A stretch of 64,000 nucleotides of DNA from Candidatus Tayloriibacteriota bacterium (GTDB lineage: Bacteria; Patescibacteriota; Minisyncoccia; Phycocordibacterales; PALSA-1337): the NCBI GenBank assembly GCA_943350765.1, contig CALRAJ010000001.1:96689-160688 (forward strand). The letters are read 5' to 3'. The translations under genes and the position numbers were made by a program. Positions within the stretch are counted from its first letter, which is position 1, and the number at the start of each line of letters is the position of its first letter. Under the pieces are notes generated by a model. That model searched no databases. It saw only the letters and a list, made by a program, of their open reading frames with translations, and was not told where the DNA came from. Shown one piece after another: positions 12,280 through 54,475 of this stretch.

Positions 12280-12300
12280 TAGATAAAATTAGGTAAAATA

Positions 12301-12339
12301 GCTTCAAAGGCTCAACGGGCGCCGTTGAGCCTTTGAAGC
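12301..12339. repeat. REP-like perfect palindrome (family F1 variant)
   Basis: gcttcaaaggctcaacgg-gcgc-ccgttgagcctttgaagc. Confidence 0.8.
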
Positions 12340-12349
12340 TTGTGAGGTC

Positions 12350-12387: not shown

Positions 12388-12416
12388 TAATCGTATTAAA
12401 TGGCTCATCAAAGCCG

Positions 12417-12454
12417 TTTGAACGGCTCAACAGGGCTGTTGAGCCGTTCAAACT
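12417..12454. repeat. REP-like perfect palindrome (family F1)
   Basis: gtttgaacggctcaacag-ggc-tgttgagccgttcaaac; related copies at 38550 and 47107. Confidence 0.8.
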
Positions 12455-22503: not shown

Positions 22504-22716
22504 CTTTTTTGAGATTTGTATTTATTAAATTACAAAATAGTGTCTAGTCATTACATGGCTCTGTTGAGGCCTATTTAGGATAAAATACCTTAAATATATG
22601 TGTAGTCAATACCGCTATTGACTTTTATGTCTGAGTATGCTAGTATTAGGGTAAAGGTGCTGTGCGTGTGCATAGTACCGTTCGTTGAGAAAACAATCAA
22701 AATAAGTGAGTCATTT

Positions 22717-24048
22717 ATGATCATGCGTCTGTTTTGGAGTGTGTTAACTGGTGTCATGCTCGGGGTTGCAGTAGTCGGTTTCCAGCAGTGGTGGCTACGG
22801 CGTTCAGGCACCACCATGCCTCGGTGGGCAAAGGTTTGCTCAGTACTGGCGTTGTTGGTTGGGTGTCTGTGTTTGTACTTTGCCATCAAGTCAATGATGT
22901 ATATGGCAACTCCAACTCCACCGTCATTGGCACTTCCTGTGCCGCCGGCTCCTCCCACAGTGCCATCTACACCGTCGCCGTTCGACTTAACCCCACCACC
23001 GTCGGCTCCTCCCTCACCGCCGTTTACACCGGCTCCGCCACTGGCTAAGCCTCCGTCGGATTTACCCCCGACTCAGCCGCAGGCGCCGTTGGCACCTCCC
23101 GCACCTCCTGTCGCTCCGCCTGCTCGCGTAAAAGCGACGCCGGCGGATAACCTTCAGTCGGCACTCGTAAAGGGGCTGATTGAGGAGCGAAAAGAGAGTG
23201 ACGCTCGAGCGATGGTTCTACTCGAAGCGGGGATCGCGAGCTCAAAAACGCAACAAGTCGTTGCCTTTGAGCTACTCCGCGGTGCAGCAGGTCGGCTGGA
23301 TGCCGAAGCGGTGAGGACTGGTTTCGCAACCAGCAACCTCCTTGCATTGCAAGCCTCGATGTTCGACCGACAAAGTCGGGTAGCGGGAAAGGTAGCGACC
23401 GCCAACGGCCTCATGGAAGGATTGGTGGAAGCACGAAAGGCGATGCTCGCTCAAAAGGCTGGGATGACGGTGGTGACGAATATCATCAACCTCAACCCCC
23501 ACATCACGGTGCAACCTGCATCAGTGATCCTGCCTCAGCAGCCAGCACCTCCGGCCTACAATCCGCCGGCCTTGCCCGCAGTTCCTGCGCCACTGACGCT
23601 CCCGAGCCTCTCTGGAGGATCCACGAGTGTGGTACCCAGACAGTCCGCTCCGCCACCCAGCATCTCAGGGTTTGAGCATGGCGTTTACGCCATCACCAAT
23701 CTACACACGAGACAGCTCTCGAAGGGATTGGCAGAGGTGCCTGTAGTCGGTGGTTTGTTCAATAACAAACCCCACTACGGTGGAAAGATCGTGAAAAGGC
23801 AATTCAGGTTGCTGGTAACGGCAAGCACTGAGAACGATATCGACCTTGCCCGTGAAGCCCTCAGGGACTTTACGGAAAAGGACAAAGAGACAAAGCTTCG
23901 GGACAACAACGATATCGTTGACCCTGGCAATCAAGACCAACAAGCTCGTCTCCAGAAGCTCTTTCTGGAAAGTCTTGTCGGTAAGTGGGCAAAGGTGAAA
24001 TCGATGGATCCGAAGCTCACCATGGTCGCTCTGACGGTCATTCCCTGA
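22717..24048 (+). CDS. Hypothetical membrane protein with Pro-rich linker, encoded in a strongly GC-rich (about 60%) island
   Basis: 2 N-terminal TM helices, an 80-aa PxxP-rich region (PPAPPTVPSTPSP...) and a 300-aa C-terminal domain. Composition deviates sharply from the flanks, with many antisense ORFs. Confidence 0.55.
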   Translation: MIMRLFWSVLTGVMLGVAVVGFQQWWLRRSGTTMPRWAKVCSVLALLVGCLCLYFAIKSMMYMATPTPPSLALPVPPAPPTVPSTPSPFDLTPPPSAPPSPPFTPAPPLAKPPSDLPPTQPQAPLAPPAPPVAPPARVKATPADNLQSALVKGLIEERKESDARAMVLLEAGIASSKTQQVVAFELLRGAAGRLDAEAVRTGFATSNLLALQASMFDRQSRVAGKVATANGLMEGLVEARKAMLAQKAGMTVVTNIINLNPHITVQPASVILPQQPAPPAYNPPALPAVPAPLTLPSLSGGSTSVVPRQSAPPPSISGFEHGVYAITNLHTRQLSKGLAEVPVVGGLFNNKPHYGGKIVKRQFRLLVTASTENDIDLAREALRDFTEKDKETKLRDNNDIVDPGNQDQQARLQKLFLESLVGKWAKVKSMDPKLTMVALTVIP

Positions 24049-34543: not shown

Positions 34544-34574
34544 AATATACTTTCATAAAGTATATCAAATTTCT

Positions 34575-34620
34575 TTACCCAAAACTCTAATATACGCCAT
34601 GGCGTATATTAGAGTTTTGG
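34575..34620. promoter_or_regulatory. 46-bp perfect palindrome in the divergent rnhB/dnaE intergenic region (candidate operator)
   Basis: acccaaaactctaatatacgccatggcgtatattagagttttgggt, followed by tataaaattatgctatagtatact (-10-like) before the dnaE ATG at 34652. Confidence 0.5.
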
Positions 34621-34651
34621 GTGTATAAAATTATGCTATAGTATACTCACT

Positions 34652-41306: not shown

Positions 41307-41313
41307 TTTTATA

Positions 41314-41359
41314 AAAAACAGCCGAATGATTTTTACATAAAATCATTCGGCTGTTTTTT
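41314..41359. terminator. Bidirectional Rho-independent terminator between typA and truB
   Basis: aaaaaacagccgaatgatttt-tacat-aaaatcattcggctgtttttt. Confidence 0.7.
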
Positions 41360-42131
41360 ATCTAAAATTTAAAACTTTCGAAATATCGTATTCCCCCACT
41401 TTTGTTCTCAAAATACTCAGTGCGAGTGCTGGTACTCCAAGCTTTTTACCTAGCTCATTTGCAATAGATCTGATATACACACCACTTCCACAGACTACTT
41501 TTATTTTTATAACAGGAAGTGTCTTTTGTGGATATTTTAGTTTAAAAAAGCTCTTCCATTTTTCAATTATTTCTGCCTGGCGAAAATCACCCGTAACTAG
41601 AGAAATATTTTTAAAGATTCGTGTCTCAAGTGAGAGTAAAGATATTTGTTCTATAGATATTATTTCTATACCGTAAACCTCGACTTCCCTGCTTGGAGTA
41701 TCCTCCTCCAGTAGAGTCTCACTTTTTGCGTATTCAAAAAGGGCCTTACCATGTAGGGTTTTTGAGGAATAGGGTGGGTATTTTTGTGCATATCTACCGA
41801 CAAATGACGCGAGGTGTGATTCTATGAGAGCATATTTTGACACACTAGTTGAAACAGGCTCAGGCAAAATACCCACAACTTTACCTAAAATATCGTATGT
41901 ATCTGTTCCCACTCCCAAAAGCACTTCGCATTCATACTCTTTATCCAGTCCAAGGTACTTCTCACGCTCCTTATTCTCCTCATCCACAAGCACGAGCATT
42001 AAACCCTCTGCCATGGGATCCAGCCTTCCTGCGTATGACAAAACTGTGTTTTTGTATTCGGGCTTTGCCAGTCGTAGTTCGTCCAAGCATTGCAAAGGTG
42101 TTTCCCCTATCTTTTTATATAAGCAAAGCAT
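41358..42131 (-). CDS. truB: tRNA pseudouridine(55) synthase
   Basis: GRLDPMAEGLMLVL (catalytic Asp motif). Confidence 0.85.
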   Translation of the reverse strand: MLCLYKKIGETPLQCLDELRLAKPEYKNTVLSYAGRLDPMAEGLMLVLVDEENKEREKYLGLDKEYECEVLLGVGTDTYDILGKVVGILPEPVSTSVSKYALIESHLASFVGRYAQKYPPYSSKTLHGKALFEYAKSETLLEEDTPSREVEVYGIEIISIEQISLLSLETRIFKNISLVTGDFRQAEIIEKWKSFFKLKYPQKTLPVIKIKVVCGSGVYIRSIANELGKKLGVPALALSILRTKVGEYDISKVLNFR

Positions 42132-45152: not shown

Positions 45153-45710
45153 TCATCGTTTGGTTAGAAAATAGTCTTCTTAAACAATAGCAAAAAGTAA
45201 TCCCCGAGAGAGGGTATTGGTTTTCTTGCTAGTATTTAAAATTGAAATACTTTTAATCATTGTTCCAATCATACCAGTAATGTAAAATAAATACAATGGG
45301 CTAGCAAAGATTGCTCTTACAGTAAGACTTTTTACTTCCAACAATGTTTCGTTTGGTGGATTTTACAGGAACTCTTCCTCTACGAGGACAGTATCCCGAT
45401 TGGATTTTTTTTACGCCAGTAGGCTTGAAAAAGTACTCAATCGGGCTTCGAGTCCTGTACGGAAGCGTCCCCACGCTTCCTACAGTCCAGCAAAAAATCC
45501 ACCAAAGGTGGATTTGTTTGTGGACCCTACAGGAATCTCTCCCTCGAATAATCCCATGCCGTCGCATGGAATTTTTCTGGGCACCGGATTCGCGACAAGC
45601 CCTACTGCGCTCGTAAACCGCGAATCCGTTCGAGTCCTGACGCAAAGCTCTGCTTTGCTTAGGGTCCACAAATTTAAAAACCACTTTATAAAAAGTGGTT
45701 TTTAAATTTG

Positions 45711-45783
45711 TGGACCCTACAGGACTCGAACCTGCCACCCCCTCATTGCAAATGAGGTGCTCTACCAGATGAGCTAAGGGCCC
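45711..45783 (-). tRNA. tRNA-Cys (GCA)
   Basis: Minus-strand sequence GGGCCCTTAGCTCATCTGGTAGAGCACCTCATTTGCAATGAGGGGGTGGCAGGTTCGAGTCCTGTAGGGTCCA. It has a 7-bp acceptor stem, the D-loop AGCTCATCTGGTAGAGC, anticodon loop TTGCAAT and T-loop GGTTCGAGTCC. No encoded CCA. Confidence 0.85.
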
Positions 45784-47158: not shown

Positions 47159-48421
47159 TTATTTACCATTACGATTTATGTCATTTTCACCTCCTTTGAA
47201 GATATTACCTCTTAGTACACGGTGATAACCGATGGCAAAACGGTGCGCTTCACTATTCACAAGCAGGATTTCTTTTTTATACTTTTCTACCATTTCTGCA
47301 TTACCAATAATTGACCTTGCCCGATGTCTCTCGTCTTTAGTCACCGACACTACTGGAATAAAAATATTTGCCTTGTTGATAACTTCCTCTACCGCTCGTC
47401 TCTGTACTTCATTTCCATCGGTAACAATCATCTGTGGAAATGTCCATTCTGGGTGAGTAAGTCGTCGTTCAATAATTTCTCTAAGATTAGCAATATCATT
47501 TGCCCCATCTTCTCTATTGATCTTAAACTTTCTATACTGCGACTTTTCTGGTAGTCTATTTTCAAGCACGGTCATTACACCCACAGTATTTTTACCTGAT
47601 AAATGGGCTATGTCATACGCCTCAATACGAAACATACTTTCATTTTCACCAACTTCTGACTCCATGATTTCTCTGGTTTTAATTAATGCCACATCCTGAA
47701 TGTGTGTCAATGCGAATATTTGCCTTTTCAATTCTCCAGCTTTTTCGAATTCCTGTTTTTTTGCATATTCCTGCATTTCCTTTTCCATTTTTCGTATCAA
47801 TATTGCTTTTTTACCCTCAAAAAACAGTTTGATACGGTTAATTATTTTTGCATAATCTTTTACTGATACATCACCCGTACATACCCCAGGACACAACCCG
47901 ATTTGAGCATTAAAACATGGTTTTCCTACCAAAGGCGCACACCTGTCTCGAAATGTGAAAATCTTACGAATTATTCGTAGACCCTCCACAATACTCGAAC
48001 CCTGCGGAAATGGTCCAAAAATATATTTTATCGTAAAATCAGATGTTTTTTGCTCTAGTTCCCTTTTGCGAACAACAAGAACTCTAGGAAAATCTTCTTT
48101 TGTAATCACCACACAATTGAAACTTTTATTGTCCTTTTCTTTTGTATTATATTTTGGCTGATGTTTTTTGATCAGGCTAGCTTCCAGAATAATCGCCTCG
48201 AGTACCGAATCTGTAACACTAAAACTCAGACTATCAGCTAGAGAAACCATGTCCACGAGAAGTTGTCCTCTGGTGGCACTTAAATCCAAACCAAAATAGC
48301 TTCTTACCCTGTCTTTGAGCGAAGTCGCCCTACCAATATACAAAATATCACTACCTTGTTTAAAAAAGTAGACTCCTGGACCGTTGGGTAGTTTTATCTT
48401 TGTAATTTCTTGACTATTCAT
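47159..48421 (-). CDS. uvrC: Excinuclease ABC subunit C lacking the C-terminal (HhH)2 domain
   Basis: GIY-YIG (PGVYFFKQGSDILYIGRATSLKDRVRSYF), a UVR motif (EFEKAGELKRQIFAL) and the RNase H-like endonuclease core (RIEAYDIAHLSG...MIVTDGNEVQ). Only 420 aa. Confidence 0.8.
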   Translation of the reverse strand: MNSQEITKIKLPNGPGVYFFKQGSDILYIGRATSLKDRVRSYFGLDLSATRGQLLVDMVSLADSLSFSVTDSVLEAIILEASLIKKHQPKYNTKEKDNKSFNCVVITKEDFPRVLVVRKRELEQKTSDFTIKYIFGPFPQGSSIVEGLRIIRKIFTFRDRCAPLVGKPCFNAQIGLCPGVCTGDVSVKDYAKIINRIKLFFEGKKAILIRKMEKEMQEYAKKQEFEKAGELKRQIFALTHIQDVALIKTREIMESEVGENESMFRIEAYDIAHLSGKNTVGVMTVLENRLPEKSQYRKFKINREDGANDIANLREIIERRLTHPEWTFPQMIVTDGNEVQRRAVEEVINKANIFIPVVSVTKDERHRARSIIGNAEMVEKYKKEILLVNSEAHRFAIGYHRVLRGNIFKGGENDINRNGK

Positions 48422-48451
48422 ATTATAAGACTATACAGTATCTAAAATACT

Positions 48452-49825
48452 TTAGCCCTTATCAAAATCACCAAAATCATTTTTCTCCATACTCATAAAA
48501 GTTGTCTTCTTTTCATCAAAGTATAGTTCTGCCACTCCTGTCGGACCATTTCGGTGCTTTTCTATCATAATCTCGGCGATATTTTTCTTGTCTGAATTCT
48601 CATTGTATTTATCCTCGCGATGAATAAACATCACCACATCGGCATCTTGCTCAATAGAGCCAGAGTCTCGTAGGTCTGAAAGTCTCGGCTTACCACCTCT
48701 CTGCTCGACTGCTCGAGAAAGCTGAGAAAGAGCGATCACGGGAACATCGAGCTCACGAGCTAGATTTTTGAGCGAGCGGGATATCTCCGTGACTTGCTGT
48801 ACGACATTGTCGGAGTTTCTGCTCTGGGTCGGTACCATAAGCTGGAGGTAGTCCACAATAATCAAGCCTAGCCCCTTTTCACTTTTTAGTCTACGAGCAA
48901 TAGATCGCATTTTCAGGATATTATTACCCGGCTGATCATCTATATATATCGGTGCCTTTGAGAGCTTGTCCATAGCATCACGAATACGACTAAAATCCTC
49001 CTCAATCGACAGATTTTGTCCTGTACGAATCTTCCACGAGTCCACTTGAGACTCAGCTGCTAGCATTCTATCTACCAGCTGTTGTGAGCTCATTTCGAGA
49101 GAAAAAATACCGACTGGGATATTGTGATTGATTGCTGTTTTGCGCGCAATGTCGAGTGCAAGCGAGGTTTTACCCATAGAAGGTCGTGCTGCAAGAATAA
49201 TCAAGTCTGACTTCTGGAAACCCGCGAGCTTGTTATCCAGCTCCTTGAAACCTGTCGGTACACCACGCATTTCACCTTTTGTCTTATGTAAACGGTCGAT
49301 TCTCTCCCATGCTTCCACGAGTGTATCCTTGAGCTCAATAAATTTGCTAGTGCCAGAGTAGTTGGTAACCTCAAAAATCTTTTTCTCGGCTCGGTCTAGT
49401 ATATCCTCAAGCTCAGAAGCTTCGTCAAAGCCTAGCTCACCGATATGCTCCGCAGCCTCGATCAGACCACGCATCATCGACTTTTTTTGAATTATTTCAG
49501 CATAATGCTTGGCGTTAGTCGAAGATGGCACGGCATTTACCAGCTCCGTGAGAAAACTCGCTCCACCCACCTGCTCTAGCTGACCTTTTTCTTTGAGACG
49601 AGACGAGAGTGACAAAAGATCTATTGGAGTAGCTTTACCAAAAAGCTCTAACATCGTCTTCCAGATCATTCTATGTTTTTCAACATAAAAAGACTGGGCA
49701 TTTGCGACATCCATAACTTCGTTTATAGCATCGGGGCGAATCATGATAGAACCGAGCAAGGCTTTTTCCGCCTCAATGCTTTGGGGTGGAATGCGGAGTG
49801 GAGCAGGTCGTATTGTTTTTTGCAT
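48452..49825 (-). CDS. dnaB: Replicative DNA helicase DnaB
   Basis: Walker A GKTSLALDIA, IIVDYLQLM and an N-terminal DnaB domain. Confidence 0.95.
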   Translation of the reverse strand: MQKTIRPAPLRIPPQSIEAEKALLGSIMIRPDAINEVMDVANAQSFYVEKHRMIWKTMLELFGKATPIDLLSLSSRLKEKGQLEQVGGASFLTELVNAVPSSTNAKHYAEIIQKKSMMRGLIEAAEHIGELGFDEASELEDILDRAEKKIFEVTNYSGTSKFIELKDTLVEAWERIDRLHKTKGEMRGVPTGFKELDNKLAGFQKSDLIILAARPSMGKTSLALDIARKTAINHNIPVGIFSLEMSSQQLVDRMLAAESQVDSWKIRTGQNLSIEEDFSRIRDAMDKLSKAPIYIDDQPGNNILKMRSIARRLKSEKGLGLIIVDYLQLMVPTQSRNSDNVVQQVTEISRSLKNLARELDVPVIALSQLSRAVEQRGGKPRLSDLRDSGSIEQDADVVMFIHREDKYNENSDKKNIAEIMIEKHRNGPTGVAELYFDEKKTTFMSMEKNDFGDFDKG

Positions 49826-49942
49826 AGAGCTATTCTAGCACGCCATTTATATTCGCAAAGATAAAAATAGGAAAAGTCTGTGTCTAAGCTGTGTACAAAA
49901 AAACATCTAAAAATAATCAGTTGTACTAATCTAGTGAATTCC

Positions 49943-49996
49943 TCCTCCTTGTATACCATAATTCCGCGACCGCGGAATTATGGTATACAAGGAGGA
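49943..49996. repeat. 54-bp near-perfect palindrome (26-bp arms, 2-nt centre)
   Basis: tcctccttgtataccataattccgcg-ac-cgcggaattatggtatacaaggagga. Confidence 0.85.
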
Positions 49997-50138
49997 TTGT
50001 TGTTATACTTGTGTAAATATGTAAAAAAGTGAACAGAAAGAAAAAAGACTTATTAAAATAAATCTGATCCAGAAAGTAATTCTTGATTCTATCATTACCA
50101 CGGGGATTCTATCTGTATCATTAATTGCTCCCAACGCA

Positions 50139-50600
50139 GTGCGACTTCTTAAATGGGCAGGGTTAGAGAAACGACTCAAAAGAAGCAAGCTTCAGATTAT
50201 TTCTAGAGCCAAAAAAGAGCTAGTTAAAAAAGGCTTGCTTGTGGTAGAAGATAGTTTACATGGAAAAGTTATGAGAATTACGGAGTTGGGTAAAAGTGCA
50301 TTGGAAAGAGAGCTTCTTATTGCAAAACGAGTAGATACAAAGTGGGATGGTAAATGGCGTGTAATTATTTTCGACATCCCAGAGAAAAGAAAGTTGACGC
50401 GAGATAAACTTCGATACAGTTTAGTTTCTGTTGGTTTTATAAAGATCCAAAATAGTGTATGGGTATATCCACATCCATGTGAAAATCTAATCTCATTACT
50501 CAAAGCAGATTTTAAAATAGGAAAGGATGTACTCTACCTTATCGTTGACCAACTAGAGGGAGATTCCTACTTACAGGAACAGTTTAATCTGAAAAAATAA
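50139..50600 (+). CDS. Winged-helix DNA-binding protein with C-terminal Cas2/VapD-like domain (start uncertain)
   Basis: N-terminal wHTH (QIISRAKKELVKKGLLVVEDSLHGKVMRITELGKSALE). The C-terminal WRVIIFDIPEKRKLTRDKLRYSLVSVGFIKIQNSVWVY resembles the Cas2 beta1-alpha1-beta2 consensus (Y/FDV...R.K....L...G.RVQNSVF). The track start is a GTG. The reading frame stays open upstream to 50025 and encodes a plausible hydrophobic segment, so the true start may use a non-ATG codon. Confidence 0.5.
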   Translation: MRLLKWAGLEKRLKRSKLQIISRAKKELVKKGLLVVEDSLHGKVMRITELGKSALERELLIAKRVDTKWDGKWRVIIFDIPEKRKLTRDKLRYSLVSVGFIKIQNSVWVYPHPCENLISLLKADFKIGKDVLYLIVDQLEGDSYLQEQFNLKK

Positions 50601-50654
50601 TCAAAAATATTTATATACACTATGTAGAACGATTAGATCAAACCATCATAATGT

Positions 50655-50712
50655 AAAAAACTATGTATACACATATTCCGCGGTCGCGGAATATGTGTAT
50701 ACATAGTTTTTT
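50655..50712. repeat. 58-bp near-perfect palindrome (28-bp arms, 2-nt centre), related to 49943-49996
   Basis: aaaaaactatgtatacacatattccgcg-gt-cgcggaatatgtgtatacatagtttttt. It shares the core attccgcgRYcgcggaat and the gtatac sub-palindromes with the upstream palindrome. Confidence 0.85.
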
Positions 50713-50806
50713 ATTGGTTTGATTGTTTTATTGTAATTGTGGAGAATATCCCGATGGCTTGCCGCGGGGAGTTTTATTTACGATACTATTTGCTATACTA
50801 ATCTCC

Positions 50807-51463
50807 ATGGACTCAATTCATTCGCTAATACAGTATTTTACCGAGCTACCTGGTGTCGGGCCACGACAAGCAAAAAGGTTTGTTTATTTTTTACTGAGTA
50901 GGAATGCTCGCTACCTCGACGAAATGTGTCGGCTGATTCAGGATCTCAAAAACACCATCAAAACATGTACCGAATGTTTTAGATTTTTCCCCAATGACAC
51001 TCGAGATGGTCTGATCTGCAATATTTGCAAAAATATAAATCGAGATAAAGCTAGTCTAATGATAGTCTGTAGAGATGTGGATTTTGAAACAATCGAAAAA
51101 AGTCATTTATACAATGGTAAGTATTTTATCCTCGGCGGTACTGTCCCTGTGCTTGAAAAAGTGCCAGAAAAGAAAATCCGCTTAAATGAACTTTTATCTA
51201 CCGTCGAAAGGCGAGCTGAAACTGAAGGACTCAGGGAAATAATCTTTGCCATGAGTGTAAATCCTGAAGGAGAAAATACTCTCGACTTCCTAAAACAATC
51301 CCTCACACCGGTCACACAAAAGTACAGCATCACAATGAGTGCGCTCGGTCGTGGACTTTCGACTGGCACCGAGCTCGAGTATTCAGATAGTGATACGATC
51401 AAAAATGCGTTGAAAAATAGAGTTTCGGAGCGAAAAAGTGATGACTCAATTATAAAAACATGA
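50807..51463 (+). CDS. recR: Recombination protein RecR
   Basis: HhH (LIQYFTELPGVGPRQAKRFVYFLL), a C4 zinc finger (CTEC...CNIC) and a Toprim domain. Confidence 0.9.
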   Translation: MDSIHSLIQYFTELPGVGPRQAKRFVYFLLSRNARYLDEMCRLIQDLKNTIKTCTECFRFFPNDTRDGLICNICKNINRDKASLMIVCRDVDFETIEKSHLYNGKYFILGGTVPVLEKVPEKKIRLNELLSTVERRAETEGLREIIFAMSVNPEGENTLDFLKQSLTPVTQKYSITMSALGRGLSTGTELEYSDSDTIKNALKNRVSERKSDDSIIKT

Positions 51464-51615
51464 AAAAGATTGTTACCATCATTTGTGTCACAATTCTTAT
51501 TTTAATATCTTTTATTTTTAGAGACCGTTGTTTAGGAAGAACAGGGGGTGAGGATAGCAACCCTGATTTACTGACAAAAATTGGACAACTTATGTGTCCT
51601 TACACAAACAAATAA
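51460..51615 (+). CDS. Small putative secreted peptide overlapping the recR stop (ATGA)
   Basis: 51 aa, MKKIVTIICVTILILISFIFRDRCLGRTGGEDSNPDLLTKIGQLMCPYTNK, with a signal-like N-terminus and 3 Cys. Not in the ORF track because it is under 60 aa. Confidence 0.3.
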   Translation: MKKIVTIICVTILILISFIFRDRCLGRTGGEDSNPDLLTKIGQLMCPYTNK

Positions 51616-51758
51616 AAGCTCAGCAACAAGTGTTTTACTAAAGTGGTCTATGTTGGCTTAATTTTCCTTAACCCCCGATTTTTCTACTGAAAAATCGGGG
51701 GGCTTCCTCATCCCACCGCTCTACAGAGCCATTAATCACCCACCACATCCACAAAACT

Positions 51759-51788
51759 TGACATTTACATACATAGTATGCTATAATA
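51759..51788 (+). promoter_or_regulatory. Consensus sigma70 promoter upstream of the GC-rich gene
   Basis: TTGACA, 18 nt, TATAAT (ttgacatttacatacatagtatgctataat). Confidence 0.55.
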
Positions 51789-52010
51789 AGCTGTAGAAGA
51801 TATAAATGGTTCTTTGATAAGGATTCGCCGACAGAATAGTGTGTGGGAGATATAAAATAAAATATCGGGTAGTAATTGCTCAACAAATTGATTTTTACCG
51901 CAATGTACCCTCATCTCTTCCCCACTCTTCTGTCGTGTGAACATCAAAAAACATACGCTGATAGTACCCTTGTCGGGTATGAGTTAGAAAGTCGGAAATG
52001 GAGAAATACT

Positions 52011-52595
52011 ATGAGTCAAGATACTGTCTGTGTGGACGAGGTCGTTATTCCTCTGGACGAAATCGGCACCACGGTTCCGACAGGCGGGGCGATACCGCCC
52101 ATCCTGATCGGAAGTATGAGCAATGTCGAGATGATCGTCCTTAAACATAAGGTCATCCGCGCAAACATCCCTCGGAAAACCTTCGAACGGACCCGCTCGA
52201 CCACGGCCTCACAACCCCGAGGTCTCCAGGTCATCAACAACCTGCCAAATGTCTCGCTGAGGCAGCTATTCCGCGGGCTTATCTGCACGGAATACCTGCT
52301 CAGCGAGGTCAACTACGACTACCTGCCGGTGGTCGCTGGACAGCCACAAATGGCGATGGTAAATGTTGTCTTCATGCACCAATCCATGGTGCGTGGACAG
52401 CTGGCACCGATCAGTCCCCTGACACTGGAGGACATCCACGAGATGATGGCGGTACCTGCACGATGGTGCCACGCCTTCCAGAACCCGGATCAAACGCTCG
52501 TGTTCAACTTTGTTGGGCTGGCAAACAGGATCCGACCTGAAAACCAACTCGTGGTCGAGGACACTCACATCAGGGTGGTTGAATTGAAAAAGTAA
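52011..52595 (+). CDS. Hypothetical protein encoded in a GC-rich (about 58%) island
   Basis: Start taken at the ATG at 52011 (MSQDTVCVDEVVIPL...). No recognisable motif. Strong compositional contrast, with antisense ORFs. Confidence 0.45.
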   Translation: MSQDTVCVDEVVIPLDEIGTTVPTGGAIPPILIGSMSNVEMIVLKHKVIRANIPRKTFERTRSTTASQPRGLQVINNLPNVSLRQLFRGLICTEYLLSEVNYDYLPVVAGQPQMAMVNVVFMHQSMVRGQLAPISPLTLEDIHEMMAVPARWCHAFQNPDQTLVFNFVGLANRIRPENQLVVEDTHIRVVELKK

Positions 52596-52696
52596 CCACC
52601 ACAAAAATAGGGAGTCAGACCCTGAAAAATAAACTGATACGCCCCGCGAGTACATGTAGTGTACTAGCGGTTTTTATTTTCATAAATCGGCAGTAC

Positions 52697-52718
52697 AAAA
52701 AACCCCTCTTGGGGTTTT
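52697..52718. terminator. Bidirectional terminator between the GC-rich gene and rplU
   Basis: aaaaaacccc-tctt-ggggtttt. Confidence 0.6.
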
Positions 52719-52757
52719 GGTTGTGTAAAAAACGCGTCAATTTTAGACTATCCTGTA

Positions 52758-53075
52758 TTATTTTATAGAATCAATAGCAACACGGAAGAATGGCTGACGA
52801 TGACCGTTTTTCTTAAAATATCGGCTCTTTTGCTTGTACTTGATAACATTCACCTTTGCTTCTCGGCCAATTTCTTTTAGAGTTGCTTCCACTTTTGCAC
52901 CATCAATAAATGGTGTGCCGATAGTGGTGTCTTTGCCGTTGTCTACAAGTAGGACTTTATCAAAGGTAATCTTGTCACCTTCGGCATAAGTACCTGTGAT
53001 TTTCTCAATATCTATAACATCGCCCTTGGCGACCTTGTATTGCTTGCCTCCTGTTTGTATAACCGCAAATTCCAT
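52758..53075 (-). CDS. rplU: 50S ribosomal protein L21
   Basis: MEFAVIQTGGKQYKVAKGDVIDIEKI... Confidence 0.95.
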   Translation of the reverse strand: MEFAVIQTGGKQYKVAKGDVIDIEKITGTYAEGDKITFDKVLLVDNGKDTTIGTPFIDGAKVEATLKEIGREAKVNVIKYKQKSRYFKKNGHRQPFFRVAIDSIK

Positions 53076-53094
53076 AGTGCTGGACAGTATATAT

Positions 53095-53345
53095 TAAATC
53101 CCAAATAAGTGCAAGCGCCAATTTATAAGGAGCGGAGCGACTTTATAAATTGTGCGTACCGAGGTATTTCCCTCGGTATCGGCCAATAGAGCGAAGCAAC
53201 CTTATGGTTTTTGTATTCTAAGCTCACCAGAGCGTAGTGCAAAGAGCCTAGCAAGGCGTAGGGCAAACAGATAGAGTCACCGAATGTACTGATTTCAGTA
53301 AAGCCATTTTCATCGGCTAAACCCCGTGTTTAGCCGATGAAAAAA
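53095..53345. repeat. Composite repeated leader element upstream of rplU (copy L2), ending in an F3 palindrome
   Basis: Shares motifs with 33620-33896. It contains the hairpin accgagg-tatttc-cctcggt and the terminal palindrome tcatcggctaaaccccgtgtttagccgatga (53309-53340). Confidence 0.6.
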
Positions 53346-53374
53346 TAGCGTATATTGAGTTCCATTATTTATCC

Positions 53375-54475
53375 CTACTCCTCCTGTCCAATATCTGGCT
53401 TTTCTATCGCCAAAGCCTCTATACCTGCCGAGGCACCCGTAATACGCAAAACATCCTTATCTATCTTCTGTAGCTCCTTTGAGGCCTTATTATAGTGATT
53501 TACCGTAGTAGAAAGCGAGCTACCCAGTGACCCCATAAACTGCTCATATGCCCCCAAATGCTTGCCCAAGTCCTCTACCCGCTTGCGAATATCCTTTGCC
53601 GACTCTTCTATCTGCAGTGCCTTTAAACCTTGCAAAACTGTCTGAAGATATGCCAAAAATGAAGTCGGGGAAACAATGATCACCCGCTTTTCCTTGAATG
53701 CATACTCTACTAGGTCGCGGGTATTTACCTTTACTGCACCCACCTGCGACACAAGGAGGTCATAATAGATTGCTTCATGTGGAATAAACATAAAAGCAAA
53801 ATCCATAGTATTTTCGGCTGGCTTTACATATTTTGCCGTCTCATCAATACGATTTTTTAAATCATTTTTAAATAGCTTTTCTAAACGCTCACGCTCAAGA
53901 GGATCTTTTTCCTCTACCAGACGATTATAATTTTCAAGCGAAAACTTTGAGTCAATGGGAATGACTTTGTCCTTTACAAAAACCACCGCATCTACAATAG
54001 TACCGTCACTAAAAGGGTACTGCATTTGAAAGTTACCTGGTGGTAGGACATTCTTGAGTAGTGTCTCCAGGTAGTACTCACCGAGAATCCCCCGCTGTTT
54101 TGGATTTTTCAAAATATCCTGCAGACTCTGGAGCTGATCAGCAAATGACACCACTTGCCTATTGGTTTCATCTAGCTTTGTAAGACCCTGTGTTACCTCT
54201 TTTATTAGCTTTGCTGACTCTCCAAACTGACGGTGTATGGTATCGCTCATACCCTTTGCAGACTCAGCCATTTTAGAATCAACAGTCTTGTTTAGCTCGC
54301 CAACCTTTATATCTACGGTACGGGTTAGCTCGTTCATCTGCTGGAGCAAAAGTTGCATACTACTCAGCTCAGTCGTCTCGCCCACACTCTTTTTTCGACG
54401 AATAATAAACACAACGAGGACAATATTCCCTACCACCAAAAGCCCAATTAAAAATATCAATATATTTTGAAGCAT
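53375..54475 (-). CDS. rmuC: DNA recombination protein RmuC
   Basis: N-terminal TM plus coiled coil, and a C-terminal RmuC nuclease-like core (DFAFMFIPHEAIYYDL). Confidence 0.85.
   Translation of the reverse strand: MLQNILIFLIGLLVVGNIVLVVFIIRRKKSVGETTELSSMQLLLQQMNELTRTVDIKVGELNKTVDSKMAESAKGMSDTIHRQFGESAKLIKEVTQGLTKLDETNRQVVSFADQLQSLQDILKNPKQRGILGEYYLETLLKNVLPPGNFQMQYPFSDGTIVDAVVFVKDKVIPIDSKFSLENYNRLVEEKDPLERERLEKLFKNDLKNRIDETAKYVKPAENTMDFAFMFIPHEAIYYDLLVSQVGAVKVNTRDLVEYAFKEKRVIIVSPTSFLAYLQTVLQGLKALQIEESAKDIRKRVEDLGKHLGAYEQFMGSLGSSLSTTVNHYNKASKELQKIDKDVLRITGASAGIEALAIEKPDIGQEE

Follow-up and report, generated by a model that had tools for sequence, protein, structure and literature searches.

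Results

Gene and features at the locus

We analysed a stretch of DNA of 64,000 nucleotides (the window, 64 kb) in which a single small gene lies between the divergent dnaB and recR and is bracketed by two long palindromes, P1 and P2. The features of this locus are as follows.

48452–49825, minus strand: dnaB, divergent, with the extended -10 element TGCTAGAAT (minus strand, 49832–49840) 6 nt before its ATG
49943–49996, no strand: P1, predicted upstream operator; 26+2+26 palindrome without mismatches, dyad at 49969/49970
50001–50009, plus strand: extended -10 element TGTTATACT of the regulator promoter, with 9 nt between it and the ATG, for a near-leaderless transcript
50019–50024, plus strand: ancestral ATG (50019–50021) followed by an in-frame TAA (50022–50024), from the alignment of relatives
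50025–50600, plus strand: coding region homologous to the full-length (~190 aa) winged helix-turn-helix plus Cas2-like regulator, stop codon included
50058–50321, plus strand: winged helix-turn-helix region, residues 12–99 of the 191-aa translation (AlphaFold model, Foldseek)
50337–50558, plus strand: PaaX_M / Cas2-like ferredoxin-fold domain, residues 105–178 (Pfam, AlphaFold model, Foldseek)
50654–50713, no strand: P2, predicted second operator copy downstream; 29+2+29 palindrome without mismatches, dyad at 50683/50684
50791–51463, plus strand: recR, with the extended -10 element TGCTATACT (50791–50799) and its ATG at 50807, of the leaderless type

Protein family and fold

The encoded protein belongs to the PaaX regulator lineage, and PaaX_M describes its family far better than Cas2 does. 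Residues 105–178 match PF20803 (PaaX_M, the "PaaX central Cas2-like domain") with E=1e-21 and 77.2 bits against a cutoff of 24, a match by which the single gene predicted between the palindromes is real; the same domain is present in all of the 120 listed homologs. The Cas2-like character originally seen in the C-terminal half is borne out and was already recognised in Pfam under the name PaaX_M. The profiles confirm a Cas2-like fold there, but the matches to Cas2 models proper are weak and partial: PF09827 (15.9 bits, cutoff 23.8) and TIGR01573 (23.5 bits, cutoff 24.5) stay below their cutoffs, and the Cas2 models of PADLOC, with E=5.7e-6, cover residues 112–147 only. The family comprises 3,415 clusters at 50% identity, mostly of 185–205 aa.

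The AlphaFold model consists of a winged helix followed by a beta-alpha-beta-beta-alpha-beta domain. The best fold matches in the PDB by Foldseek are, in this order, E. coli PaaX (8a39, over an alignment of 181 columns), Rv0674 (3kfw) and Cas2 chains; the family profile run against the PDB likewise finds 3kfw best (E=0.012) and also 8a39. The model, the matches to 8a39 and 3kfw and a partial match to TIGR02277 bear out the predicted winged helix at the N-terminus. Helices are modelled at residues 12–25, 36–44 and 53–68, a wing at 72–85 and a further helix at 87–99, with helix 53–68 the likely recognition helix in this model; residues 53–99 are modelled confidently and residues 1–52, including helices 12–25 and 36–44, with low confidence. 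We considered the hydrophobic N-terminal segment as a membrane anchor and rejected this. The segment is homologous to the family, and the model places it in helices 1 and 2 of the winged helix rather than in a membrane segment, at the low confidence of this region.

The C-terminal domain of PaaX is missing. Neither the Pfam model of the PaaX N-terminus nor PaaX_C matches the protein, which ends about 13 residues after PaaX_M (191 aa), and the equivalog TIGR02277 gives 33.2 bits against a cutoff of 264.55, aligning only to its positions 40–136 of 279. The aspartate D117 at the end of strand 1 (FDI in the motif IIFDIP) is invariant in 117 family members and falls in the stretch aligned to the start of the Cas2 models; this Cas2-type aspartate is replaced in PaaX and Rv0674. 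The PaaX_M-type domain has been described as a dimerisation motif in the PaaX lineage (PMC9493321). We found no pointer to a nuclease or toxin, as had been suggested for this gene; its lineage is that of PaaX regulators instead.

Palindromes and promoters in the window

P1 and P2 share one pattern, GTATAC-N4-ATTCCGCG-RY-CGCGGAAT-N4-GTATAC, which has no third occurrence in the 64-kb window. P1 is built from the core CGACCG, the inner ATTCCGCG/CGCGGAAT and the outer GTATAC half-sites at 49951–49956 and 49983–49988, and the half-site spacing GTATAC-N26-GTATAC is the same in P2, which is flanked by runs of A6 and T6. The core ATTCCGCGRYCGCGGAAT was found only at 49961–49978 and 50675–50692 of the window even with 3 mismatches, while shuffles of the window gave a mean of 0.01 matches; GTATAC-N24-28-GTATAC likewise occurs at P1 and P2 only, with 0.03 expected in 64 kb. 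The common core and GTATAC sub-palindromes noticed originally are thereby confirmed as unique to these two places in the window, and two copies without dispersal in 64 kb do not suggest generic REP elements. The coordinates first given were exact for P1 (49943–49996) and one base short on each side for P2 (50655–50712). The two centres are complementary as predicted, AC in P1 and GT in P2 (AC/AC or AC/GT in relatives), but since the centre is not itself palindromic this difference means only that the copies have opposite orientation. Compensatory changes in the arms were observed in the relatives L001 and L003, for P1 as well as P2.

The -35 position of the regulator promoter (about 49981–49986) falls on the outer half-site of P1. 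The TGTTATA.T positions of the -10 element are invariant in the alignment of relatives, and in the window as well as in L001, L130 and L138 TGTTAnAnT lies at +32 to +40 from the dyad, which places the outer half-site at the -35 position in all four. Leaderless-type promoters are common in the window. The extended -10 element of dnaB is about 100 nt from P1, and the dyad of P2 is ~123 bp upstream of the recR ATG, outside the core promoter of recR. A replication origin was considered because of the adjoining dnaB and the divergent genes, and was rejected: the GC skew tracks gene orientation, with no inflection at the locus.

Sites at homologous loci

The layout of one gene between two related sites is a property of the family. 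The core C(TATA|GATC|GRYC)G occurs in both 150-bp flanks at 51 of 69 loci, against 0.66 expected by chance (at this stringency the remaining 18 lack it in one flank or in both). Over 40 bp, the two sites have an identity of at least 70% in 43 of these 51 loci. Comparing the 200 bp upstream with the 200 bp downstream, we found a common exact word of at least 12 nt at 44 of 79 homologous loci; among 400 shuffled pairs of loci, 20 had one. Within a locus the upstream and downstream sites are copies of each other, between loci they differ, and the locus-specific word was met elsewhere just once in 237 kb of homologous loci.

A dyad-anchored profile of 236 half-sites has an invariant G at +3 and a prominent outer motif T15-G16-T17-A18-T19, so that the outer TGTAT motifs stand about 28 bp apart. 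The dyad lies 15–23 nt before the start codon at 33 of 68 loci, exactly 17 nt at 26, and a TAnnnT hexamer is found at +6 to +11 from the dyad in 29 of those 33. Judged by these positions, the upstream sites overlap the gene's own promoter, either at the -35 position or at the -10 element together with the start codon. The downstream neighbour is convergent at 42 of 69 loci, and the downstream site is therefore no promoter operator for that gene. The type of site tracks the protein subfamily, a co-variation that shared ancestry alone could explain.

Helical phasing was examined as possible evidence for looping between the sites and rejected as such, the centre-to-centre distances giving no signal (n=13, p=0.2–0.4). 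A scan of contigs over 596 Gb with the core of 16 specified bases, for which we estimate ~140 chance matches, was too unspecific; nearly all matches lie in GC-rich genomes, and the only relevant one is L008, another Patescibacteria MAG, in which a near-identical palindrome stands alone.

Discussion

A regulator between two predicted operators

Our analysis suggests that the gene encodes a minimal transcription factor of the PaaX family and that P1 and P2 are its two cognate operators, used for negative autoregulation; we give this reading a probability of roughly 0.7. It draws on the domain identity, the site architecture, the conservation in the family, the co-variation with the protein lineage and the promoter overlap as observed above. 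Since the gene-between-two-sites layout recurs in most sampled relatives, a self-controlling switch is most likely, rather than a CRISPR relic or a toxin, and the comparative data favour the earlier suggestion of an autoregulated gene with paired operator sites.

The regulator would consist of a winged helix-turn-helix and a Cas2-like dimerisation domain, without the C-terminal inducer-binding domain of PaaX. Its operator would be a palindrome of ~40 bp, centred on a core of 6 bp, which is CG-RY-CG here, with GTATAC/TGTAT as the outer half-sites at a spacing of about 26–28 bp. By occupying P1, a dimer would mask the -35 position of the near-leaderless promoter, of the extended -10 type, from which the gene itself is transcribed, and would so repress it. 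P2 follows closely on the stop codon and may form a loop with P1 to act cooperatively; alternatively, as a roadblock or terminator, it may shield the gene from transcription coming from outside. The two sites would have grown into perfect hairpins of 54–60 bp in the clade of the window.

The interrupted start of the gene

The regulator may be absent as a product in this genome. The annotated product begins only at GTG 50139 and has 153 aa. The frame had been predicted to be open about 110 nt further upstream, and it is indeed open for 114 nt, from 50025, over a segment homologous to the conserved N-terminus of the family. Because this open stretch is bounded by an ATG (50019) and a TAA (50022), the ancestral start has been kept with a stop directly behind it. 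The window and the relatives L004, L005 and L006, four independent assemblies, all read ATGTAA, whereas L001 reads ATGGAA and L003 ATGAAA, codon 2 of relatives being GAA or AAA. With TAA at codon 2, ordinary decoding cannot yield the full-length protein in this lineage; here the module may have been disabled recently, or a near-cognate start may be used for its expression. The suspicion of a non-canonical start was right in that the GTG is too far downstream, but the cause is not obviously such a start; it is the TAA after the ancestral ATG.

The best-surviving rival concerns the present state of the module and not its identity: the unit could be dead or dying here, its regulator inactivated by the nonsense codon and P1 and P2 left as relic operators. 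We regard this as possible but rather doubtful. Beyond the four assemblies with ATG-TAA, it is favoured by the next canonical start, GTG 50139, which in the model would cost the winged helix its helix 1 and half of helix 2 and has no Shine-Dalgarno sequence visible before it, and by the use of TAA as an ordinary stop, for example at the regulator gene's own end (50598–50600). The remaining 191 codons are intact, however, both palindromes are still perfect, and dN/dS on the window branch is 0.11 over the 38 codons ahead of the GTG (codons 3–40) and 0.10 over the remainder, values which cannot date the TAA mutation. The in-frame near-cognate codons ATT 50052, ATA 50058, CTG 50064 and ATC 50067 could also give a product that keeps helix 1.

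Two further ideas about the start were considered. For a start at GTG 50029 followed by a -1 frameshift in the A-rich run we found no support: a proper slippery heptamer is missing from that frame, and L001, where the start is normal, simply reads the A-rich stretch as E-Q-K-E-K-R. The AAGGAGGA in the right arm of P1 was rejected as a ribosome-binding site, since it stands 22 nt away from the ATG, is absent in L001 (GGGAAA) and lies in a genome poor in Shine-Dalgarno sequences (2 of 43 genes).

Possible Cas2 ancestry and mobility

The Cas2-like domain raises the question of other roles. A self-contained Cas2-derived cassette, domesticated or selfish, whose protein cleaves, recombines or insulates at extruded hairpin or cruciform DNA, seems very unlikely to us. 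Such a role for the ~190-aa proteins of Parcubacteria would draw on the Cas2 aspartate and the signature over strand 1, helix 1 and strand 2, both lost in PaaX, and on the bracketing palindromes, long perfect hairpins in some clades. We also consider very unlikely a selfish or domesticated mobile cassette similar to RAYT/REP or IS200/IS605 elements, with the Cas2-like domain as a nuclease on the extruded hairpins. One gene between two copies of a lineage-specific palindrome would suit such a cassette, as would the invariant Cas2-type D117 replaced in PaaX and Rv0674, the partial match to Cas2 models, the lone palindrome of L008 and the flanking genes, which vary among distant family members. 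Closer relatives nevertheless keep the synteny, with dnaB upstream in L001 (88% identity) and recR downstream in L003 (87%) and L127 (69%); the window has a single copy of the gene and no dispersed palindromes, and Pfam finds only PaaX_M and Cas2 in the protein and no HUH/Y1 transposase or other recombinase. Strong purifying selection (dN/dS 0.10–0.11) also speaks against it, and so does the position of the sites inside the core promoter of the gene itself, where one would expect operators. The minimal selfish element of the original prediction is thus unlikely, given that the order dnaB-gene-recR or its recR side is kept at 69–88% identity while the palindromes remain undispersed.

A CRISPR relic, another of the earlier suggestions, conflicts with the ~3,400 clusters of ~190-aa proteins, with the result of TRF, which found no repeat array in the 64-kb window (as predicted), and with the neighbourhoods, where the 25 commonest Pfam families of each set of neighbours at homologous loci (63 upstream and 67 downstream proteins) include none of the Cas type and cas1 is not among the window neighbours tested by Pfam (uvrC, dnaB, recR, rmuC, ddl and yqeY). 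The paa genes are likewise absent from these window neighbours and from the 25 commonest families of each set.

Symmetry and hairpins

The symmetry of the palindromes appears, from the pattern of substitutions, to be maintained at the level of DNA. Changes on both sides were found in 20 of the 27 arm pairs (71 cells), which none of 500 shuffles reached, and slid controls gave 17–24 cells. No one-sided changes of the G-U type occur in the inner 18 arm pairs, nor is there a wobble bias among the mismatches of imperfect sites, and RNA-level selection on the hairpins was rejected for want of a wobble signature.

It is accordingly highly improbable that the palindromes are terminators or stabilising hairpins acting as RNA, unrelated to the protein and alike only because this genome favours long hairpins. 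In favour of this reading, the folding energy of both is about -45 kcal/mol (z-scores near -12), and the window has several more hairpins of this long, perfectly paired kind at gene ends. P2, between its runs of A6 and T6, also resembles an intrinsic terminator in both directions and is scored as one on either strand. The stems of 26–29 bp are far longer than those of usual terminators. But P1 has only a weak T tract and sits between divergent promoters, where no terminator is expected, and most sites of the family are imperfect and ~40 bp long, with perfect arms of at least 15 nt in only 7–9 of the 51 site pairs, so that most could not act as terminator hairpins. That paired sites are copies within a locus and different between loci, and that the upstream site keeps a fixed offset from the -10 element or start codon, does not fit RNA hairpins either.

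The perfect symmetry of 54–60 bp in the clade of the window exceeds the need of an operator, as a PaaX-like dimer needs ~40 bp. This excess suggests either that a hairpin or cruciform imposes a further constraint or that template switching corrects one arm from the other.

Comparison with known systems

The nearest characterised relative is PaaX, the repressor of the phenylacetate catabolon and the best fold match (8a39), with the same winged helix followed by a Cas2-like PaaX_M domain. The E. coli PaaX operator is TGATTC(N27)GAATCA; at the promoter of its own gene, PaaX acts as a repressor by sterically blocking RNA polymerase (PMC9493321). The geometry of the family sites matches this 6-N27-6 arrangement of two inverted 6-bp half-sites, from which similar binding is predicted. 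Unlike PaaX (316 aa), the window protein has 191 aa and lacks the helical PaaX_C domain, which answers phenylacetyl-CoA in PaaX; no paa genes were found nearby, and the protein scores 33 bits with TIGR02277, against a cutoff of 265, and keeps the Cas2-type aspartate that PaaX has lost. Its module has, in addition, a core of 6 bp conserved at the dyad of the predicted operator, and it repeats this operator downstream of the gene. Rv0674 of M. tuberculosis (3kfw), an uncharacterised PaaX-like protein, combines the same winged helix-turn-helix and PaaX_M and is the best PDB profile match and second-best fold match, but it has 247 aa with an extra C-terminal part and a strand-1 motif without the aspartate.

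With Cas2 the protein shares the ferredoxin-like beta-alpha-beta-beta-alpha-beta fold, the aspartate at the end of strand 1 and the signature hhhh(F/Y)DI...R...R..L...GF..hQ.SVW over strand 1, helix 1 and strand 2. In contrast to Cas2 it is fused to a winged helix-turn-helix and falls below the cutoffs of PF09827 and TIGR01573; TRF detected no array in the window, and Cas families are missing from the 25 commonest of both neighbour sets.

Lambda cI (OR/OL), lac O1/O2 and the flanking sites of phage 186 CI are cases in which operators cooperate by looping and sharpen autoregulation, and there too a regulator gene or promoter lies between two cognate operators. The proteins are unrelated to ours, however, and our module differs in having no detectable helical phasing and a downstream site that is a terminator-like hairpin. 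REPs are dispersed in tens to hundreds of copies, and RAYTs are HUH/Tyr nucleases. A RAYT/REP unit resembles our module as a single gene bracketed by lineage-specific palindromes that co-vary with the protein, whereas we found two palindrome copies in 64 kb, one extra in 237 kb, and a winged helix-turn-helix protein of the PaaX family. Our search of the literature on PaaX with Cas2, on Cas2-like domains with a winged helix and a palindrome, and on regulators of Patescibacteria returned nothing describing this module.

To our knowledge, almost nothing is known experimentally about the control of transcription in the Candidate Phyla Radiation (Parcubacteria/Paceibacteria), whose bacteria cannot be grown alone. 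The present analysis offers a concrete and testable regulatory module for a very widespread family (~3,400 clusters at 50% identity). It specifies the protein, a predicted operator grammar of ~40 bp (a C(TATA|GATC|GRYC)G core with TGTAT half-sites at +/-15–19 from the dyad), a leaderless-type promoter predicted to be occluded by the operator, and, directly behind the stop codon, a second predicted operator that is both conserved and unusual. A recurrent misannotation is corrected as well, members being publicly named "CRISPR-associated endonuclease Cas2", phenylacetate (PaaX) regulator or PadR-family regulators; in sequence the family is intermediate between Cas2 and the dimerisation domain of PaaX. 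If looping or a roadblock is true, the layout would be a compact insulation of a dosage-sensitive regulator in tightly packed genomes, and if the Cas2-derived cassette is true, the family would be an evolutionary bridge between Cas2 and PaaX regulators.

The DNA-repair genes among the neighbours also prompted the idea of a LexA-like SOS regulator. A LexA network in Patescibacteria was reportedly described by Sanchez-Osuna et al. in 2017, as cited in PMC8565304, and the bias among the neighbours may reflect the small genomes.

Two palindromes around a regulator gene

The unit studied here consists of a regulator gene between two palindromes, P1 and P2, both of which are predicted operators:

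49943-49996, P1, perfect palindrome (26+2+26) upstream of the gene
50001-50009, promoter element TGTTATACT, 9 nt before the ATG
50025-50600, plus strand, regulator gene, annotated start GTG at 50139
50654-50713, P2, perfect palindrome (29+2+29) downstream of the gene

Both palindromes of the original prediction are real; the limits of P1 were exact, and P2 is one base longer on each side than noted. They are 80% alike over 40 nt, with the common layout TGTATAC-N4-ATTCCGCG-(AC/GT)-CGCGGAAT-N4-GTATACA. In the 64-kb window, GTATAC-N24-28-GTATAC and CCGCGRYCGCGG are found in P1 and P2 only, and their 18-nt core has no third site with up to 3 mismatches (chance expectation 0.01). The complementary centres (AC versus GT), singled out earlier, carry no special meaning: since the 2-nt centre is the sole non-palindromic part, they merely mark the opposite orientation of the copies. 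The centres in relatives are AC/AC or AC/GT. The P1 centre is AC in the window and in L004 and L005, two contigs of other samples, unlike the GT in L006, a third such contig that starts inside P1 (L006:1-24 against window 49959-49980). Either the palindromic contig end was misassembled or the hairpin centre does flip within the population.

Domains of the encoded protein

Translation from 50025 gives 191 residues. Residues 105-178 match PaaX_M, "PaaX protein central Cas2-like domain" (Pfam, E=1e-21), while the Cas2 Pfam model stays under its cutoff. In NCBIfam the protein scores 33 bits against the PaaX equivalog TIGR02277 (cutoff 265) and 23.5 bits against Cas2 TIGR01573 (cutoff 24.5); residues 112-147 match PADLOC Cas2 models (E=5.7e-6). 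An AlphaFold model with 117 homologs as input (pLDDT 75, pTM 0.72, confident over residues 53-190) has a helix at 53-68, a beta-hairpin wing at 72-85 and a helix at 87-99, followed by a beta-alpha-beta-beta-alpha-beta domain. In the PDB, Foldseek ranks E. coli PaaX (8a39) and M. tuberculosis Rv0674 (3kfw) highest, ahead of many Cas2 chains, and the sequence profile of the family also matches 3kfw and 8a39. The winged helix and Cas2-like fold guessed from sequence are therefore right, and their combination is already recorded as domains one and two of PaaX.

The protein is not PaaX proper, since it lacks the C-terminal domain, ending ~13 residues past the Cas2-like domain, has no paa context (its neighbours in the window are uvrC, dnaB, recR, rmuC, ddl and yqeY) and misses the equivalog cutoff. 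Nor is it Cas2, because its scores miss the cutoffs and neither cas1 nor an array was found; TRF detected no repeat array in the window. It resembles PaaX in the PaaX_M domain and in the operator geometry, promoter occlusion and autoregulation predicted below. It differs in having no equivalent of the PaaX C-terminal domain, which is inducer-responsive, and in D117, the Cas2-characteristic Asp at the end of strand 1 (IIFDIP), which is invariant in the family and replaced in PaaX and Rv0674 according to the alignments. We would class it as a minimal Parcubacteria regulator of the PaaX family, with two domains.

A word-indexed search returned 888 homologs, nearly all 185-205 aa and all with PF20803, and those with a named source come from Parcubacteria/Paceibacterota MAGs; their labels read "hypothetical", "Cas2", "PadR" or "PaaX". 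An exhaustive search gave 3,415 clusters at 50% identity (E<=1e-3), or 1,587 at E<=1e-10, of ~190 aa and matching over the full length.

The start codon

The homolog N-terminus (MG.LE...KKR.R...IQK.IL...) aligns with the window frame that is open upstream of GTG 50139. In the model these residues form, with low confidence, helices 12-25 and 36-44, which correspond to helices 1 and 2 of the winged helix. The annotated product (153 aa) begins at residue 39 and would be without helix 1 and half of helix 2. This late start was annotated because the ancestral ATG, kept at 50019 in the DNA alignment, is followed by TAA as codon 2, where the closest relatives have GAA (L001, L002) or AAA (L003). The TAA is common to the window, L004, L005 and L006, and is therefore no read error. 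TAA is an ordinary stop in this genome and also ends the regulator gene itself. Codons 3-40 have a dN/dS of 0.11 on the window branch and the remaining codons one of 0.10, so the segment upstream of the GTG has been under equal constraint, a comparison that does not date the mutation. Either the TAA at codon 2 is a recent knockout and the gene is a pseudogene in this genome, or initiation takes place at an in-frame near-cognate codon (ATT 50052, ATA 50058, CTG 50064 or ATC 50067), each of which would keep helix 1 complete.

The palindromes follow the gene across the family

Both palindromes are present at the same positions in L001, L002 and L003 (87-88% protein identity), where the inner 24 nt are almost constant and a change in one outer arm is matched in the other, e.g. 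TCCTCC...GGAGGA to TTTCCC...GGGAAA and GTATAC...GTATAC to GTAAAC...GTTTAC. More distant homologs have other palindromes, yet again one upstream and a near-copy downstream (L127, at 69% identity, L130, L138, L139, L140, L187, L202 and others); L128 (53% identity), located between gyrA and a gene of unknown function, has an identical 20+2+20 on both flanks.

We examined 79 non-redundant loci, mostly from one metagenome scan. An exact word of at least 12 nt is common to both 200-bp flanks in 44 of them, against 20 of 400 shuffled locus pairs. Of the 69 loci whose flanks are complete, 51 have a 6-bp core, C(TATA/GATC/GRYC)G, in both 150-bp flanks, 11 have it on the upstream side alone, 3 on the downstream side alone and 4 on neither side; the background density of this core, 0.10 per 150 bp, predicts 0.66 two-flank loci by chance. 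Over 40 bp, 43 of the 51 pairs have upstream and downstream sites with 70% identity or more. Generic repeats would put palindromes at numerous unrelated loci, which was not seen within the available sequence: the shared words recur only once elsewhere in the 44 loci (237 kb, whole window included). By this comparison the palindromes belong to the regulator gene family-wide.

L130 carries its operator a third time (L130:1485-1540), 1 kb before the regulator gene, in the interval from smpB to a gene of unknown function. This copy is followed by ATGGGTAGTAAGTAA, a 4-codon ORF that resembles the beginning of the regulator gene, and may be what is left of a duplicated promoter and 5' end. In a Patescibacteria MAG (JBBTTN010000095.1, L008:636-673), the 34-bp palindrome ACTTAATAATTCCGCGACCGCGGAATTATTAAGT holds the 24-nt core of P1 exactly, upstream of a minus-strand small membrane-protein gene with TGTTATAAT + 7 nt + ATG. 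No regulator homolog was found in the 6.8 kb of sequence covered, and the palindrome may belong to a regulon of a related genome.

An operator-like site grammar

A profile of 236 half-sites anchored on the dyad has T/C, A/C, G and C/T at positions 1-4, with G always at +3, then an A/T-rich spacer and an outer motif T15-G16-T17-A18-T19. The long palindromes alone give the same profile. The full predicted site is thus ATACA-N~28-TGTAT with a small C...G core at its centre, in the window GTATAC-N26-GTATAC around CGACCG or CGGTCG. E. coli PaaX has the published operator TGATTC(N27)GAATCA and represses its own promoter through steric hindrance (PMC9493321). The site geometry would suit a PaaX-like dimer in which the central Cas2-like domain keeps the two winged helices far apart.

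Among 13 dyad-aligned window-type sites, 20 of 27 arm pairs have two-sided changes (71 cells), a value reached by 0 of 500 shuffles, with 17-24 cells in slid controls; no one-sided G-U type changes occur in the inner 18 pairs. The mismatches in imperfect sites (33 other, 8 G-T, 5 A-C) equal the random expectation. The symmetry appears to be a property at the DNA level. Most family sites are imperfect (median 15 of 20 symmetric pairs), and arms perfect over 15 nt or more are limited to 7-9 of 51 site pairs; the window clade, with its perfect hairpins of 54-60 bp, thus has an exaggerated form of the ordinary predicted operator. The reading of the palindromes as plain terminators fares badly, since P1 has divergent promoters on its two sides, the imperfections of most family sites would prevent terminator hairpins and the wobble signature is absent.

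Promoter overlap and predicted autoregulation

In the window, 15 of the 43 ATG-start ORFs have a TAnnnT with its end 5-8 nt upstream of the ATG, against 8.9% of random positions; 7 of the 15 carry the TGn extension. A Shine-Dalgarno-like motif (GGAG, GAGG or AGGA) precedes only 2 of the 43, and the genome appears rich in leaderless genes and poor in Shine-Dalgarno sites. Examples are dnaB (TGCTAGAAT + 6 nt + ATG) and recR (TGCTATACT + 7 nt + ATG). The TGTTATA.T positions of the regulator promoter are invariant among relatives.

The upstream site takes two layouts. In the first, the dyad precedes the start codon by 15-23 nt (33 of 68 loci, exactly 17 nt in 26), TAnnnT lies at +6..+11 from the dyad in 29 of the 33, and the ATG overlaps the outer half-site, so the whole core promoter is inside the predicted operator. 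In the second (window, L001, L130, L138), the dyad precedes the ATG by 46-49 nt with TGTTAnAnT at +32..+40, which places the outer half-site on the -35 position. Protein bound at the upstream site would occlude RNA polymerase in either layout; from this positional argument, the main one, we infer negative autoregulation of the regulator gene.

The role of the downstream site is the weakest part of this model. Its dyad lies a median of 31 nt past the stop codon. The following gene is convergent in 42 of 69 loci, and only 3 of 59 sites have an ORF start at operator distance (15-23 nt from the dyad), so the downstream site is not an operator of a neighbouring promoter. The P2 dyad is ~123 bp from the recR start, outside the recR core promoter. 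Between P2 and the recR promoter, ~50 extra bases (…GTAATTGTGGAGAATATCCCGATGGCTTGCCGCGGGGA…, window ~50722-50771), absent in L001, L002 and L003, put P2 ~50 bp further from recR in the window lineage. The second site may cooperate with the first by looping, as known for lambda OL/OR and lac O1/O2; we found no helical phasing in the spacing of the two sites, so looping gains no support from this test. Alternatively, it could be a roadblock or terminator, the roadblock keeping outside transcription, sense or antisense, off the regulator gene. P2 has A6 and T6 flanks, a terminator score on both strands and a folding energy of -44 kcal/mol.

An attractive alternative to an autoregulated gene is a mobile RAYT/REP-like cassette, given the two bracketing palindromes and the retained Cas2 Asp. 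However, dnaB is kept upstream in L001 and recR downstream in L003 and L127 (relatives at 69-88% identity), the available sequence has no dispersed palindrome copies, the protein has no transposase domain, and the sites sit within the promoter. There is a small chance that the conserved Asp and long hairpins reflect something more unusual, an activity on DNA structure. We found no description of the family-wide operator - gene - operator bracket or of the operator grammar in the searchable literature.

Neighbouring genes and other features of the window

DNA-repair and replication genes often adjoin the family, as do uvrC, dnaB, recR and rmuC in the window (47159-54475). Among 63 upstream and 67 downstream neighbours at homologous loci (L132-L211) we counted RmuC (6), RecF/RecN-type SMC_N (3), GyrB (2), RecJ (2), ExoX-like or RNase T exonucleases (4-5), RNase III (5) and LigA-type domains (1-2). 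This bias may merely reflect the small CPR gene set.

Other long palindromes are present in the window. A perfect 28+4+28 palindrome (45660-45719) overlaps the 3' end of tRNA-Ala (45710-45783, minus strand), and a perfect 23+5+23 palindrome with A and T runs (41311-41361), between convergent genes, looks like a bidirectional terminator. The 66-bp near-palindrome at 34567-34632 (centre GCCATGGC), in the intergenic region of a divergent gene pair, is a possible further operator. Between convergent genes lie two related hairpins with 18-19-nt arms (12300-12340 and 12416-12453).

An island of 60% G+C (22800-23700; genome ~39%) coincides with a 476-aa ORF (22618-24048), Pro/Ala-rich and of low complexity, with an N-terminal hydrophobic segment and no Pfam match. 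Two ORFs, also without Pfam match, overlap on opposite strands at 51876-52655: 51876-52595 plus (239 aa, TTG start) and 52266-52655 minus (129 aa). The annotation differs by assembly, L004 having the minus-strand ORF and L005 the plus-strand one.
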